In this document: positions 1-29,996 of the stretch, piece by piece | Layout: each line of letters begins with the position of its first letter | How positions within the stretch are numbered: the first letter of the stretch is position 1 | DNA from: an uncultured bacterium | GTDB lineage: Bacteria; CSSED10-310; CAZUFC01 | Length of the DNA: 34,998 nt | Direction: 5' to 3' | Assembly (NCBI GenBank): GCA_964619725.1 | Contig: CAZUFC010000093.1 | Location: 1 to 34,998, forward strand | Notes under the pieces: model-generated | Told to the model about the DNA's origin: nothing | The model's database searches: none | What the model saw: the letters and a program-made list of their open reading frames with translations, nothing else | Translations under genes and position numbers: made by a program

Positions 1-317
1 AAGTCCAAGTCCAACACAGGGTCCTCAAATACGTCCGGATCGAAATCCACACAGGTATCAAGCGCGGTTACGATCGTCGCAGCCGATGCCTCGTACCGTA
101 TCGTCACCGTCAGCGTCTGTCCACGATAAGCATCACCCGATGGAGGACTCACGGATACGTCTGCTAGAGCCGTCCACGGCACCAGGAGAATACCGATAAG
201 CATGACGGGCAAAAGCATTTTTCTGTTTCTACTTGTCTGATCCCTCTTCCCAGCTCGGTTAAATACTCTTTTGTCTCGATCCCGGCTGGGTGGGAGCATG
301 AACTGTAAGCGTTTCAT
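1..317 (-). CDS. Partial CDS (runs off the window edge): secreted protein with a cohesin-like domain
   Basis: Not in the ORF track. Manual translation from ATG at 317 (SD GGAGGGAG just upstream, 20 nt after the stop of the giant gene): MKRLQFMLPPSRDRDKRVFNRAGKRDQTSRNRKMLLPVMLIGILLVPWTALA-DVSVSPPSGDAYRGQTLTVTIRYEASAATIVTALDTCVDFDPDVFEDP..., open to the edge. Basic region, hydrophobic stretch and ALA cleavage motif. The segments GQTLTVTI and ALDTCVDFDPDVF resemble cohesin strands. Alternative start at 218. Confidence 0.75.
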   Translation of the reverse strand, partial: MKRLQFMLPPSRDRDKRVFNRAGKRDQTSRNRKMLLPVMLIGILLVPWTALADVSVSPPSGDAYRGQTLTVTIRYEASAATIVTALDTCVDFDPDVFEDPVLDLD

Positions 318-18231: not shown

Positions 18232-19482
18232 TCAATGAATCACCAGATAGGGCCAGATATCGCTCATATGTCCTGCGTTGTCGGTCGCTATAATGTTCAG
18301 GAGATATTCGTCTGCGGGAGCGCCCGGCGCCATGTTGAACTGGGCGCCGAATGTGCCGTCTCCGGCTGCAAAATCTCCATGTTCTCCATCATCGTGAAGG
18401 AAAATACCCGTGGGCAGTATGCCGTAGTAGAGTTGCACTTCTGCGATATCCTGGAGACCGTCCGGGTCTACGATCATTGCCAAAACCAAAAAGTCGCCGC
18501 CGGTCTGCGAATAGATTTCCGTGTCGAAGAATCCGGCGTAATGGATTTTCGGACGACTCGGATTCCCGGGAGGCGCTCCGAAACTCTGCTCATTCGTATA
18601 ATTCAACGCCTCGATTTCCCATCCGGGCACAGGAGGCGCTCCGTAAGGATCGCTCCCTTCATAAATCGTCAGATAAGGCCACATCGCTGAATAATTTCCG
18701 GCTTCATCCCATGCTATGATTTCGAAAATGTAATCCGAAGAGGGAAATCCCGCAGGTATTTCGAATTGAAGTCCGAACACGCCGTCTCCTGCATCGAAAT
18801 CTCCGTGAAGTCCGTCATCTTCCAGATTCAGGCCTGTCGGCAGACCCTCATAATACAGCGAAGCGCCCGCTACATCGAACGGAGCGACGTCATCCTGGAT
18901 CAAAGCTCTGATCGTCAGCAATCCGCCTTCATCAGAAGAAATCTCTGACTCACCGTATCCTCCTATCAAAATACTGGGCGGCTCAATGTCGCCGTCAGGA
19001 ACTGTCAGAAACGAATATTCCTCGGTTTCCATGCACAGATCGGTGGACGGCGAACCCAGTGTCGTCGGAGCAAAAGTCTGAGTATCAAGAGTGCATGCGT
19101 CAATCGTTACCCAGACCTCTTCCTGATAATTGAATTCCAGCTCGGGAATATATTCCAAAGCCACTCCTCCGGGAATGAAATCCACCACCGGGGATACTGG
19201 TTCGGAATTGACCGTCATGAATATCGAATTCGTGTCTATTCCGCATTCGGAATACAATTCCAGGTATATCGTCGTATCCACCGCTACGTTGATTGCCTCC
19301 GGTTCAGGATCATGCGCGCCCGTCGTCGGCGCTTCACATGACGTTGATGGAGCTCCCTCAATGGTCGAATCGTAAGATATCGAATCCACGAAATCATAGT
19401 CGCTCGCTGCCGCAGGCGATGCAAGCAACGCTATCGCTGCTGATATTACTGCAAAAAATATCGACTTTCTCGGCTTCTTCAT
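18232..19482 (-). CDS. Secreted acidic protein (416 aa): Ig-like domain plus two tandem choice-of-anchor-X-like domains
   Basis: Start MKKPRKSIFF at 19482 with SD AGGAGG; signal peptide ending PAAA. Two ~105-aa repeats with LYY.G/..LPTG..L.DDG.HGDF.AGDG.FG...D.AG..S..WPYL.I. The track's start at 19656 lies inside a riboswitch. Confidence 0.8.
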   Translation of the reverse strand: MKKPRKSIFFAVISAAIALLASPAAASDYDFVDSISYDSTIEGAPSTSCEAPTTGAHDPEPEAINVAVDTTIYLELYSECGIDTNSIFMTVNSEPVSPVVDFIPGGVALEYIPELEFNYQEEVWVTIDACTLDTQTFAPTTLGSPSTDLCMETEEYSFLTVPDGDIEPPSILIGGYGESEISSDEGGLLTIRALIQDDVAPFDVAGASLYYEGLPTGLNLEDDGLHGDFDAGDGVFGLQFEIPAGFPSSDYIFEIIAWDEAGNYSAMWPYLTIYEGSDPYGAPPVPGWEIEALNYTNEQSFGAPPGNPSRPKIHYAGFFDTEIYSQTGGDFLVLAMIVDPDGLQDIAEVQLYYGILPTGIFLHDDGEHGDFAAGDGTFGAQFNMAPGAPADEYLLNIIATDNAGHMSDIWPYLVIH

Positions 19483-19563
19483 TTTCACTAGTCCTCCTGA
19501 GATTAAATGTGATTGTCGTTGAACGTTTTCCATGAAAATGAGGAAGCTGTTTTGTCCCCTTTT

Positions 19564-19662
19564 CTTTTCCCTTGGTAGTCCGGCTGCCGTGAACGATTCT
19601 CGTTCCTTAGGCCCGTGACTTTGCGTCCCGTCCTTTCGAACGGTTTGCCCTTTCATGGAAAA
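19564..19662 (-). ncRNA. c-di-GMP-I (GEMM-I) riboswitch, gene-proximal copy
   Basis: Minus strand GGGCAAACCGTTC-GAAA-GGACGGGACGCAAAGTCACGGGCCTAAGG...GGCAGCCGGACTACC matches the class I consensus (GNRA-capped P2, GCAAA junction, P3). It has G at the Vc2 position-20 equivalent. Confidence 0.95.
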
Positions 19663-19780: not shown

Positions 19781-19878
19781 AGCTCCTTTGGCAGCCCGGC
19801 CGCCTCTTCCATTTCCTGGATTTAAGGCCCGTGACTTTGCGCCCTACTTTTTCAAATAGTTTGCCTTTTCATGGAACC
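19781..19878 (-). ncRNA. c-di-GMP-I (GEMM-I) riboswitch, promoter-proximal copy
   Basis: Minus strand GGTTCC-ATGAAAAGGCAAACTATTT-GAAA-AAGTAGGGCGCAAAGTCACGGGCCT...GGCGGCCGGGCTGCCAAA-GGAGCT; P1 is GGTTCC/GGAGCT. Confidence 0.9.
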
Positions 19879-26587: not shown

Positions 26588-27343
26588 ATGCCTGCAGAAA
26601 GATTCTATGCGCCGCCTCATTGCTTTGAAAAATCAAAAATCCTCCTGCCCCCCGATGAATCCTACCACGCCTGCAAAGTCCTTCGGCTAAAAAAGAAAAA
26701 TTTGATCAGAATCTTCGACGGAACCGGCGCCGAATACAAAGTTGAACTGGAAAAACCCGATCCCGAAAAAGCCGTAGGCAGAATCATTGAAAAATATTTC
26801 CCGGATGTTGAAAGTCCGATTAAAATTATACTTTGCACCGCCGCAGTCAAATTAAACTCCTTTGAACGAATTCTTAAAAATTCAGCGGAAGCCGGAGCAT
26901 CTGCTATTCTGCCGCTCATTACCGAACGAACTGACCCGTATCTCCAGAGCGGCTTTGAAAAACGTTACGCTCGCTTCTCCAAAATTATCCTCAACGCCGT
27001 TAAACAATCTGGAAGAACTCTTGTACCGAAATTGCTGCCCTTCGCTGATCTACACCGCTGCCTCACTCAATACCAAAATATTTCAGGAAAATTCATCCTT
27101 ACAGAACCGCGCAATCAATCAGAAATTCATCTGCCGGATTCCCAGGACTTTTCAGAATTAGCGCTCCTCATCGGCCCCGAAGGAGGCTGGACTCAACGCG
27201 AAATCACTTCTGCGCGCCAGAGCGGCTTCGCTCCCTTTTCCCTCGGACCACGAATACTGAGAACCGAAAACGCCGCCATGATCGCCGTCGCTCTTTTCCA
27301 GTTGCTCCCCTCCATGAGACGCGGATCTGTCTCCACTGCCTGA
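26588..27343 (+). CDS. rsmE: 16S rRNA m3U1498 methyltransferase RsmE
   Basis: H..KVLRL, KQSGR, LIGPEGGW, SLGPRILRTENAA. Confidence 0.95.
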   Translation: MPAERFYAPPHCFEKSKILLPPDESYHACKVLRLKKKNLIRIFDGTGAEYKVELEKPDPEKAVGRIIEKYFPDVESPIKIILCTAAVKLNSFERILKNSAEAGASAILPLITERTDPYLQSGFEKRYARFSKIILNAVKQSGRTLVPKLLPFADLHRCLTQYQNISGKFILTEPRNQSEIHLPDSQDFSELALLIGPEGGWTQREITSARQSGFAPFSLGPRILRTENAAMIAVALFQLLPSMRRGSVSTA

Positions 27344-27370
27344 CGCAGCATAAGGTAAAATTCGCCTTTT

Positions 27371-27388
27371 ATGGGCAACCCATTTTTT
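27371..27388 (+). terminator. Possible terminator of the heat-shock operon
   Basis: ATGGG-CAA-CCCAT followed by a T run; the stem is short. Confidence 0.4.
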
Positions 27389-27404
27389 ATTCGACTGACT
27401 CGAT

Positions 27405-27667
27405 AAAAAAAAAGGAGACCTCTGCAGTTTTAAACTGAATCTGAGGACGTCATTCCCCTTCGGTGAGGTTCGAAGAAAATGAGCCGGGAGCGAAGCTTCC
27501 GTGGCTATGAAGAAACATTCGTGTTCGGCCGCCTAGGGGATAGCGGCAAAAGGGGAATGCCAGGGGCTAAAGAAAGGAGAATATTTTTCTTTCATTTCAC
27601 CACTTTGCATTCTCGCTCCCGGACAAATCTCGTTCTCTCAATTAACGATTAACACCGTCGGTGTGCC
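27405..27667 (-). ncRNA. Candidate ~260-nt structured RNA of unknown family (or a small-ORF mRNA)
   Basis: Upstream promoter, long imperfect rod 27484-27622, 10-bp pseudoknot pairing 27550-27559 with 27451-27460, and a 3' hairpin followed by T9. Several stem mismatches resolve as G-U pairs only on the minus strand. Confidence 0.6.
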
Positions 27668-27671
27668 TATT

Positions 27672-27701
27672 ATTATTAACTTATCACCAACAGAAAGTCA
27701 A
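27672..27701 (-). promoter_or_regulatory. Putative sigma70 promoter pointing into the candidate RNA
   Basis: TTGACT-17/18 nt-TAATAAT on the minus strand, with no long ORF downstream in that orientation. Confidence 0.55.
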
Positions 27702-27875
27702 GAGAAAAATGAAAACATCATTATTTTTTGTAATAATATGTAACGTGTAAAATAATTTAATTTTTTAAAAAAAATTTTATAAATTGGTCGGAGTTTACGC
27801 CTCGCCCGGTAGACTATCAGCAACTCAGACTCCACCGGCCCCCGGAGGTAAATTCTGTTTAAACCAAGGAATCCC

Positions 27876-27904
27876 TTGACATTATTGATTTTTAAGTTTA
27901 CTTT
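27876..27904 (+). promoter_or_regulatory. Putative sigma70 promoter for the ECF sigma gene
   Basis: TTGACA-17 nt-TACTTT. Confidence 0.55.
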
Positions 27905-27965
27905 GCTTAGGAGTGAAAGTTGAAGTTAACCGGACCTCATCATCAGACATACATGAAGGAGAAGC

Positions 27966-28565
27966 TTGGATTTGCTTAGTATAGAACGGGAAAAGCAAAT
28001 AGTGGATAAGATCAGGAGCGAAAAAGACGGTAAAGCTTTTGAGGAGCTGGTCGAAGCGTATGAGGGCCCGATATTCAATTTTGTATTAAAGATGTGCGGG
28101 AATCGTGAGGATGCATTTGAGATAGTGCAGGAGGCGTTTTTAAGCGCATACAAGTCATTTCATCAATTCAGGGGAGATGCGCGGGTAAAAACCTGGTTAT
28201 TCCGTATAGCGGCGAATGCTTGCCGGTTGAAGAGAAGGAAGCGCAAGTATGAGCCGAATCATTTCCTGAAACTGGAGCAGCAGAAGAAGGACGAGGCGAA
28301 CGAATTCCGTGTTCTCCAGGTGCCTCATCCCGACAAGGACCCTTCTGAGGAGTTATTGAACAGCGAATTGAGGGAATTGATATCGCGAGCGATCAACGAA
28401 TTGGAGGCTGAGTATAAATCGGTATTTGTATTACGCGACATAGAGAAGCTTTCGACGGCGGAGACGGCAGATGTATTGGAGATATCGGTACCGGCGGTGA
28501 AATCGCGTTTGCACCGTGCGCGTCGTTATTTACGGGATCGTATCGTAAAATTTTATCAGGATTGA
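27966..28565 (+). CDS. ECF-type RNA polymerase sigma factor
   Basis: Region 2 (EDAFEIVQEAFL...F.G....KTWLFRIA.N) and region 4 (LSTAETADVL.IS..AVKSRLHRAR). TTG start with SD AAGGAG. Confidence 0.95.
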   Translation: MDLLSIEREKQIVDKIRSEKDGKAFEELVEAYEGPIFNFVLKMCGNREDAFEIVQEAFLSAYKSFHQFRGDARVKTWLFRIAANACRLKRRKRKYEPNHFLKLEQQKKDEANEFRVLQVPHPDKDPSEELLNSELRELISRAINELEAEYKSVFVLRDIEKLSTAETADVLEISVPAVKSRLHRARRYLRDRIVKFYQD

Positions 28566-28628
28566 CAAGGGACTTCACCGGTATGCTTGCATACATGCTT
28601 TGAGGATGTCGCTAACAGAGAAGAAAAG

Positions 28629-29996
28629 GTGAGAATAACTTCGGGACGCAAAAGAGTAGTGATAATCGGTGGAATGGCGGCCGGATTGAATGCGGCATCA
28701 GCGCTTTCACCGCGTTCGGATGCGGAAGTAACGGTTATAGAAGGTTCGGGATTTTTCGGATATGGTATCTGTTCATTGCCGGATTACATTGCTGACAGAA
28801 TAGACGGTAAAATGATACTCCGAGGCCGAACGTCCCGAAGCTTCCGGGAAAGGTACGGAGTCACGGTTCTTTTAAGTCATCTGGCGACGGAAATAGATAC
28901 TTCACTGGGGCGAATTGAAGTGGAGAACCTGGAGACGGGTTCCCGGCGTTATTTATTTTATGACAGTCTGGTATTGGCGACGGGCGGCAGGATAAATACG
29001 CTGGGTCTGGAGCTGGCTGAATTGCCCGGCATTTTCGGGTTGCGTTCATTCGATGATGCGCAACGATTAAAGGAATGGATGCGGATAAACACTCCTCGCC
29101 GGGTGTTGATAATCGGGGCAAGTTTTCAGGGTATTGCCCTGGCGGAATCCTTTCACTCCCGCGGAATGAAAGTGATTCTGGCCGATGAATCGACCGCCGT
29201 CCCTTATAAAATGGGAAAAGATTTATCGGAGAAAATCACTCGAATACTGCAACAAAAGGGCATTGAAATAGCGCATGGTTTTCGTCCCGCCTCTTTTGAA
29301 CGCCCGGTTAATACTCGAAACATCAACGTCGAAGCGGAAGATGGACGAACGGTGACGTGCGATTTGGTTTTTCTCGCCCTGGGCTGCTCACCCAATACCG
29401 AATTAGCCGAAAATGCGGGATTGGAAATCGGAAGCGCCGGGGGAATTCGCGTCGACGAAAAAATGAAAACCTCAATTCACCGTGTCTATGCGGCAGGAGA
29501 TTGCGTAGAAATTAAAAATACAGTCACGGGAAAATCCTTCCTTCACTCCCATGCAGCGCCGGCGGTAAAACAGGGAAGAACAGCGGGTAAAAATATAGCA
29601 GGAGAATGGGCCGTCTTCAAAGGTTCCCCCGGTACATTCATGGGTAAAATATTTGATTATGAATATGCCGGAACGGGATTAACTCTCCAGAAAGCCCGGG
29701 AAGCAGGTTTTAAATCGGATCAGATTACGATAAGTTCAAAACTCCGCAGCTATCCAGGAAATGAAGGCGAAATACACGTCAACCTGGTCTTCGATAAAAC
29801 AGATCATCGTTTACTAGGCGTCAGAATACTGGGCGAACCCGGAACCGCCTCCAGAATCCACGGGCCAGTCGCAGCGCTGCATGCCCGCCTGAAACTCGAA
29901 GACATGGTTCAGATAGATTTCGGCTATAATCCAAAACTCTCTCTGCCCGCAGACCCCTTCAACGTAGCCGCTACAGCCGCCCTTCAATCGGATTGA
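28629..29996 (+). CDS. FAD-dependent pyridine nucleotide-disulfide oxidoreductase (CoA-disulfide reductase / NADH oxidase-like)
   Basis: VVIIGGMAAG, YGICSLP (single redox Cys), YDSLVLATG, VYAAGDC and a C-terminal dimerisation region. Probable start is GTG 28629. Confidence 0.85.
   Translation: MRITSGRKRVVIIGGMAAGLNAASALSPRSDAEVTVIEGSGFFGYGICSLPDYIADRIDGKMILRGRTSRSFRERYGVTVLLSHLATEIDTSLGRIEVENLETGSRRYLFYDSLVLATGGRINTLGLELAELPGIFGLRSFDDAQRLKEWMRINTPRRVLIIGASFQGIALAESFHSRGMKVILADESTAVPYKMGKDLSEKITRILQQKGIEIAHGFRPASFERPVNTRNINVEAEDGRTVTCDLVFLALGCSPNTELAENAGLEIGSAGGIRVDEKMKTSIHRVYAAGDCVEIKNTVTGKSFLHSHAAPAVKQGRTAGKNIAGEWAVFKGSPGTFMGKIFDYEYAGTGLTLQKAREAGFKSDQITISSKLRSYPGNEGEIHVNLVFDKTDHRLLGVRILGEPGTASRIHGPVAALHARLKLEDMVQIDFGYNPKLSLPADPFNVAATAALQSD

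Follow-up and report, generated by a model that had tools for sequence, protein, structure and literature searches.

The RsaE/RoxS RNAs of Gram-positive bacteria carry C-rich motifs that are unpaired. The C-rich regions are highly conserved and pair with ribosome-binding sites. 6S RNA forms a rod of some 180-200 nt in which a closing stem and a long terminal stem flank a large central bubble. A rod-like fold also brings to mind viroid-like elements and Obelisks, the latter being about 1 kb, circular and protein-coding (PMC10827157, in part). The locus described here, which lies in a 34,998-nt stretch of bacterial contig DNA (the window), shares features with each of these.

The locus shows the pattern of C-rich, anti-SD-like small RNAs, of which RsaE/RoxS is an example (PMC8216469, in part). 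Like RsaE/RoxS, the rod described below has CCCC and UCCCC motifs together with an anti-SD-like stretch suited to purine-rich ribosome-binding sites, the sequence conservation of its C-rich regions is very high and its host is without a clear Hfq. However, the rod gives no match to the RsaE/RoxS family model (RF01820), and it is a 139-nt unit with paired ends, not a set of separate hairpins. It also differs in belonging to a deep-branching lineage and in that its gene has a cis complement in the 3' tail. Our overall reading is that the locus is very probably a real and unclassified small RNA gene, in which the rod is a discrete expressed module with a core under very strong constraint.

The Locus and Its Neighbors

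The host assembly comprises 9.17 Mb and is 90.9% complete. RsmE, encoded to the left of the RNA locus, is present in 14/14 same-phylum genomes, with an identity of 25-31% in the 13 others. Identities this low mark the host as a deep, lone lineage and make the relatives too distant for synteny beside rsmE. The genes around the rod encode PrmA, RsmE, an ECF sigma factor and an oxidoreductase (Pfam), and none of them points to a protein partner. The oxidoreductase gene takes the slot after the ECF sigma gene, where no anti-sigma factor is recognizable. The listed start of the ECF sigma ORF, a TTG at 27966, is just 3 nt past the GGAG of AAGGAGAA (both within 27957-27968), and the real start may be further downstream, for example at an in-frame GTG near 28002.

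Table 1. Features of the RNA locus and its neighbors, in positions of the window.
Feature	Position	Strand	Remarks
rsmE	26588-27343	plus	Pfam; left neighbor of the RNA locus
Terminator-like hairpin, then UCC and T9	27405-27448	minus	Hairpin 27448-27417; UCC and T9 27416-27405
Tail arm AAGGGGAAUG	27451-27460	minus	Pairs with the loop arm, or with CAUUUUCUU in a local tail hairpin (27482-27449)
Rod, structured unit	27484-27622	minus	139 nt; 5' and 3' ends pair (CCGGGAGCGAG/TTCGCTCCCGG); nested helices, asymmetric inner loop (MFE)
84-nt core	27509-27592	minus	Nearly invariant among RNA-library relatives
Apical hairpin GCCGC-UAUCCCCUAG-GCGGC	27528-27547	minus	10-nt loop with CCCC; unpaired probability at least 0.9
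Single strand	27548-27578	minus	31 nt, 26/31 pyrimidines
Loop arm CAUUCCCCUU	27550-27559	minus	Can pair with the tail arm, as a pseudoknot or in an alternative fold
Anti-SD-like stretch UUCUCCUUUCUUU	27569-27581	minus	Exact complement of AAAGAAAGGAGAA
5' leader	27623-27666	minus	Small hairpin ACACC-GAC-GGTGT at 27664-27652
Sigma-70-like promoter	TTGACT 27701-27696; AATAAT 27677-27672	minus	18-nt spacer; 10/12 consensus matches
ECF sigma gene	27966-28565	plus	Pfam; right neighbor of the RNA locus
Pyridine nucleotide-disulphide oxidoreductase gene	28587-29996		Pfam; directly after the ECF sigma gene

Other features of the region were also noted. A weak inverted repeat (27381-27396/27696-27711; 16 nt, 75% complementary) encloses the entire RNA unit and is probably a product of chance in AT-rich DNA. 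A repeat scan found no direct repeats flanking the unit, and a GC-rich stretch at 27783-27852 has no fold beyond that of shuffles (z +1.26 and +0.40). Further away, the minus strand carries tandem c-di-GMP-I-type riboswitch aptamers at 19571-19659 and 19786-19874 (78.7 and 65 bits; Rfam). They are upstream of a minus-strand ORF of about 430 aa (18232-19530) without a Pfam family.

A Rod as the Structured Unit

The first-pass annotation of this DNA described a stand-alone structured RNA of about 260 nt. The part of this that stands is the rod. Its MFE is -49.5 kcal/mol on the minus strand (z -3.69) and -55.2 kcal/mol on the plus strand (z -4.13), and 0/200 shuffles were as good in either case. 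The entire 271-nt unit, on the other hand, reaches a z of only -1.88, with 8/200 shuffles folding equally well. Two flanking hairpins that had been proposed are present in the letters but their structure is at chance level. One is the ACACC-GAC-GGTGT hairpin of the leader (-6.8 kcal/mol for the leader as a whole, 86/200 shuffles as good) and the other is the terminal hairpin before T9, with its weak stem (-7.3 kcal/mol, 30/200 shuffles as good). Among the elements listed in Table 1, only the rod and the 10-nt complement between loop and tail beat chance. Taken together, the fold of the rod, the modest z of the whole unit and the weakness of leader and terminator identify the 139-nt rod as the structured unit.

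Could the rod be no functional RNA at all, but a palindrome that arose by chance or an element acting at the DNA level, within an intergenic region that is long and AT-rich? The chance-level flanking hairpins and the low z of the whole unit are what such an origin would give. However, no shuffle matched the rod, and its core recurs in 4/4 RNA libraries compared, beside flanks that are different yet paired (see below). This origin is most improbable.

The nested helices, the C/U-rich strand (31 nt; predicted as about 30) and the GCCGC/GCGGC hairpin of the earlier description are all found in the minus-strand MFE structure. Its helices are CCGGGAGCGAG/TTCGCTCCCGG, GTGGT/GCCAC, ATGAA.AGA/TTTCTTCAT and ATATTC/GAATGT. 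In the inner loop, 31 nt of the 5' side face 7 nt of the 3' side, and the apical stem has 5 bp. Three CCCC motifs are located at minus-strand rod positions 57-60, 68-71, and 84-87, and they differ in how exposed they are. The motif at 84-87, in the hairpin loop, has an unpaired probability near 0.9 or more and that at 68-71 one of about 0.5-0.9. The motif at 57-60 is predicted in a small 3-bp stem, with an unpaired probability near 0. The last 10 nt of UUCUCCUUUCUUU open the 31-nt single strand, and unpaired probabilities in this anti-SD-like stretch are 0.4-0.9.

The exact complementarity between the loop and the 3' tail, also part of the first description, proved sound. It is 10 nt long and 100% complementary, a length reached in 6/5000 dinucleotide-shuffled tails. 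A second set of alternatives involves AAAGAAA (27592-27586), whose possible partners are UUUCUUU within the anti-SD-like loop (27575-27569) and, on the 3' side of the rod, UUUCUU (27515-27510). Unpaired probabilities for these alternatives are intermediate, and they may make up an internal switch by which the loop is masked or exposed.

Known RNA Families

At gathering score, Rfam places no family at the RNA locus; the two c-di-GMP riboswitches elsewhere are the sole matches in the window. When the threshold is relaxed to E<=10 over 27300-27970, five rows appear, all at chance level, the best having an E of 0.31 and 18.7 bits, where the gathering score is 55. Neither 6S (RF00013) nor RsaE/RoxS (RF01820) has a row at E<=10 in that interval, and no ribozyme family matches at E<=10 (Rfam). 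The Rfam check that had been suggested, with 6S included, is therefore negative for the rod at both thresholds. In addition, no description of such an RNA was found in the literature at the level of listings and abstracts.

The host has its housekeeping RNAs in other places. A canonical 6S RNA is at C21:57498-57677 (112.7 bits), and SRP RNA (70.8 bits), RNase P RNA (300.3 bits) and tmRNA (188.6 bits) are all on other contigs and above their cut-offs. With all four accounted for on other contigs, the rod is not a diverged version of any of them. This agrees with the original statement that it does not look like tmRNA, SRP or RNase P RNA. The suggestion of a divergent 6S-like RNA is not supported, given the canonical 6S on another contig, the silence of the 6S model and the rod itself, with its 139 nt and its asymmetric 31/7-nt loop.

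Could the host have a second RNA of the 6S-like kind here, with rod and open loop serving to bind RNA polymerase? Two 6S RNAs exist in some bacteria. The rod resembles 6S RNA in having an internal open region, and it is present, apparently in abundance, in RNA libraries. However, it is shorter, its loop is strongly asymmetric (31 versus 7 nt) and its apical stem is just 5 bp. Together with the canonical copy already in the genome and the absence of an RF00013 match even at E<=10, this makes a second 6S RNA very unlikely.

Relatives in RNA Libraries

Relatives of the rod emerged from public sequencing runs. An index of such runs lists 14, of which 4 are DNA runs from one study and 10 are RNA runs from 8 other studies. 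One of the DNA runs may be the source of the host assembly. Each of the 10 RNA runs holds a small share of the query words. Contigs were compared for 4 of these RNA runs, from 4 studies (aquatic, wetland, salt marsh, and sediment), the other six (X8-X10, X12-X14) being left out. In 4/4 there is exactly one matching contig, 151-164 nt long, and each contig covers 27509-27592 (84 nt) with 1 other letter and then diverges from the window. The comparison took in 27300-28000, of which the leader, the tail and the neighboring genes are without cover in the library contigs. Near-identical cores in short contigs of all four libraries, together with the lack of an Rfam match, bear out the original call of a novel non-coding RNA.

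The flanks of the library contigs tell us more about the fold. On the right, where they were read over 30 letters past the core, CTCCCGG ends at letter 30 in 4/4 contigs, the same as in the window. The sole left flank that reaches the outer helix has CGGGAG starting at letter -24, again as in the window, and the flank lengths are thus 24 and 30 nt. The outer helix CCGGGAG/CTCCCGG is in the same register, and the matching flank ends and registers indicate that both this helix and the rod length are kept. The stretches that lie between this helix and the core do not match the window in sequence, yet they pair with each other (GCAGT/ACTGC, GTTG/CAAC), and in pairs 8-132, 28-116, and 29-115 (minus numbering) both sides have changed compared with the window. 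The four contigs share the same helices, and their differences from one another, including those of 1-2 nt in length, fall in predicted inner loops. Flank pairings and pair counts of the variants were read by hand.

Contigs by themselves are silent on strand and on transcription, and RNA libraries can also contain DNA. One clue is that the letters beside the insert in 3/4 contigs end in what we take to be Illumina adapter. Adapter-like ends imply short inserts, and this points to a small RNA species and not to carried-over genomic DNA. Arithmetic with contig and adapter lengths, as a way to find a fixed end, reads for either strand and was dropped. The simplest reading of the library variants is that they derive from unsampled relatives.

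Could the core be conserved because it encodes a peptide? The rod is overlain on the plus strand by an ORF of 57 aa, for which Pfam gives no family and a protein search no homologue. The other open frame of the core has 27 aa, and stops close both its sides in the window. The left flanks of two library contigs differ by 2 nt, which disfavors a conserved reading frame.

DNA copies were sought widely. BLAST over 41 genomes and a single-sequence covariance model over 151 genomes, same-phylum genomes included, matched the host's own genome alone, and within that genome the rod is single-copy, with no second copy found. Exact scans with two core blocks each gave 0 matches in species-representative genomes, in JGI metagenome contigs and in viral contigs. 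The two blocks were non-overlapping in each collection (one range was common to the genome and metagenome scans), so that a copy with one change would be caught and more diverged copies missed. Matches in phages (2 records) and plasmids (1) all have at most 26% cover and an E of at least 0.1, as expected by chance.

This pattern raises the idea of kinship between the rod and an RNA-only or mobile element, a viroid- or satellite-like rod present in the host genome as a DNA copy. With the window's own study set aside, the core came up in RNA libraries only, the genome, metagenome, and viral collections contain 0 exact matches, and the shape is that of a rod, as in viroid-like elements and Obelisks. 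However, many DNA runs are absent from the run index. Moreover, the copy in the window is DNA-encoded in the chromosome, single-copy, between rsmE and the ECF sigma gene and with its own promoter and terminator. It has no flanking direct repeats and matches no ribozyme family. Known viroids have sizes of 220 nt and more (PMC8781251, in part), and 139 nt is well below that. Finally, the library contigs end in adapter-like letters and not in wrap-around repeats. We regard such an origin as highly improbable.

Strand and Transcription Signals

The promoter proposed in the first-pass annotation (TTGACT..TAATAAT) was recovered on the minus strand, with the matches and spacer given in Table 1, and transcription from it is expected to start near 27666. 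This AT-rich region has 5 promoter-like sites against 1.4 +/- 1.2 in shuffles. A similar site, TTGATT-17-TATATT, precedes the tmRNA gene of the host. At the other end, the hairpin and U9 on the minus strand have no upstream minus-strand gene to terminate, and rsmE is served on the plus strand by a terminator-like site of its own (27371-27383), a weak one (-4.4 kcal/mol). A simple terminator scan omitted the minus-strand hairpin 27448-27417, whose stem has inner loops. On the plus strand there is no promoter-like site before the rod and no U-tract after it. A plus-strand promoter-like site at 27649-27676 faces the ECF sigma gene at a distance of about 290 nt. Its -10 box overlaps that of the divergent minus-strand site (27701-27672), and the two could compete or be co-regulated.

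The base pairs of the rod give a less clear answer. Three G-U pairs in the minus-strand rod (MFE) had been put forward as evidence of strand. They are present, but two of the three are at helix ends, and the library variants add one wobble for each strand. All four variants share a junction pair that is G.U on the plus strand but A.C on the minus strand, whereas in one variant a neighboring pair shows the reverse, with the wobble on the minus strand (both read by hand). Since one wobble favors each strand, the tally based on pairs is balanced. On the plus strand the three G-U pairs of the window leave the mirrored rod 3.2 kcal/mol weaker, and the plus-strand MFE relies on a flank pairing specific to the window, which the variants cannot form. 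Overall, the RNA is probably, though with considerable room for doubt, made from the minus strand, with the promoter (27701-27672) at one end and the U-rich terminator (27405-27416) at the other.

What would a plus-strand RNA be? In this scenario it would be a purine-rich decoy with the consensus SD AAAGAAAGGAGAA and three GGGG(A) motifs that titrates CsrA or the 30S subunit, perhaps produced by read-through from rsmE. Its GGA motifs, three in number and in one case placed in a hairpin loop, recall the CsrA sponges CsrB, RsmY, and RsmZ, and the host does encode CsrA (C7:53364-53519, 70.2 bits against a cut-off of 27). The weak rsmE terminator would allow for read-through, the plus-strand fold is at least as good (z -4.13) and one junction pair of the variants is G.U on this strand only. 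Nevertheless, three GGA motifs are few compared with the CsrB type, the rod is not a string of hairpins and there is no family match. The absence of a plus-strand promoter-like site before the rod and of a U-tract after it, the weaker rod topology (by 3.2 kcal/mol), the need for a flank pairing that is impossible in the variants and the order of hairpin and T9, meaningful on the minus strand only, all count against it as well. A plus-strand decoy is thus rather unlikely. A resemblance of the plus-strand hairpin loop to helix 45 of 16S rRNA was unsupported and was dropped.

The Anti-SD-Like Loop and SD Usage of the Host

The anti-SD-like stretch of the minus-strand loop can be compared with the sequences that precede the genes of the host. 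AAAGGAGAA is the commonest 9-mer before predicted starts, with 73 occurrences upstream and 1 mid-gene, and AGAAAGGAG has 42 and 0, counts that are partly circular because the starts had been picked for having an SD core. The SD consensus of the host is extended and A-rich, with AAAGGAGAA, GAAAGGAGA, and AGAAAGGAG among the top 9-mers. The host assembly contains no 16S rRNA gene. The best Hfq candidate is sub-threshold (24.4 bits) and within a 278-aa open frame.

It had been noted that the loop is complementary to the SD of the divergent ECF sigma gene. A specific partnership is not supported, for AAGGAGAA is found before 117/3531 predicted starts. Is there a better target? Across the genome, no perfect complement to the loop region exceeds 14 nt, a length reached by 2 of the 225 matches of at least 11 nt, and about 3 such 14-nt complements are expected by chance. 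In other words, the genome contains no extended specific mRNA target for the loop beyond complements at chance level. An RNA duplex scan of 11451 start regions returned whole-length duplexes of -50 to -62 kcal/mol, which are implausible, and it was discarded.

Possible Modes of Action

How might the rod act? The best mechanistic guess, read from the sequence, remains that of a small RNA whose anti-SD-like loop would be gated by a pseudoknot. The primary transcript would have about 260 nt, from promoter to terminator, and may be trimmed to the rod. Regulation would be by base pairing through the open pyrimidine-rich loop, with UUCUCCUUUCUUU and the three CCCC motifs, and the loop would occlude purine-rich ribosome-binding sites of mRNAs in the manner of RsaE/RoxS-type RNAs. 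The tail segment AAGGGGAAUG would pair with one CCCC motif or fold locally, and so may serve as a built-in mask or switch. Built-in switches of this kind, whether formed by tail and CCCC or by the AAAGAAA alternatives, are plausible on the predicted folds. A role of the rod in translation control, exerted by way of the anti-SD-like and C-rich loops, is a tentative proposal, somewhat less probable than its negation.

One observation that this mechanism does not cover is the extent of the conservation. A pairing seed does not account for the invariance of all 84 nt, and this is the main unexplained fact about the rod. The invariance keeps two other readings alive, the plus-strand decoy discussed above and a ribonucleoprotein scaffold. 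In the latter a protein or machine (the ribosome, S1, RNA polymerase, or another) contacts the whole core while the rod protects the ends. A core kept with 1 change while the adjacent helices and loops are replaced exceeds the needs of a pairing seed, the ends of the rod are paired as in stable RNAs and the genome offers no extended mRNA target. However, the neighborhood of PrmA, RsmE, ECF sigma and oxidoreductase genes suggests no partner, and no known protein-binding RNA family matches. A scaffold is rather unlikely.

A bolder idea goes further than the sRNA mechanism preferred here. Perhaps the rod is the first genomic representative of an environmental small RNA family, both widespread and abundant, whose fixed core would be a translation mimic acting as a global decoy for ribosome recruitment; we consider this a long shot. 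Equally speculative is what the core would then mimic, namely the anti-SD tail of 16S rRNA (on the minus strand) or the consensus SD (on the plus strand), which would set it apart from a regulator with few targets.

Implications

If the gene is real, it represents a new bacterial small RNA family that is met in RNA libraries of four habitats and has this one assembly alone as its genome anchor. The window would then be the entry point to the family, because it supplies the promoter, the terminator, the neighboring genes and the host lineage. The preservation of 84 nt nearly letter for letter, beside helices that change freely, would be unusual for a small RNA that acts by pairing, and it points to a conserved partner. 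The host belongs to a deep and little-sampled lineage without a clear Hfq, and the exact complementarity of the open loop to its preferred ribosome-binding sequence provides a directly testable link between this RNA and the control of translation.
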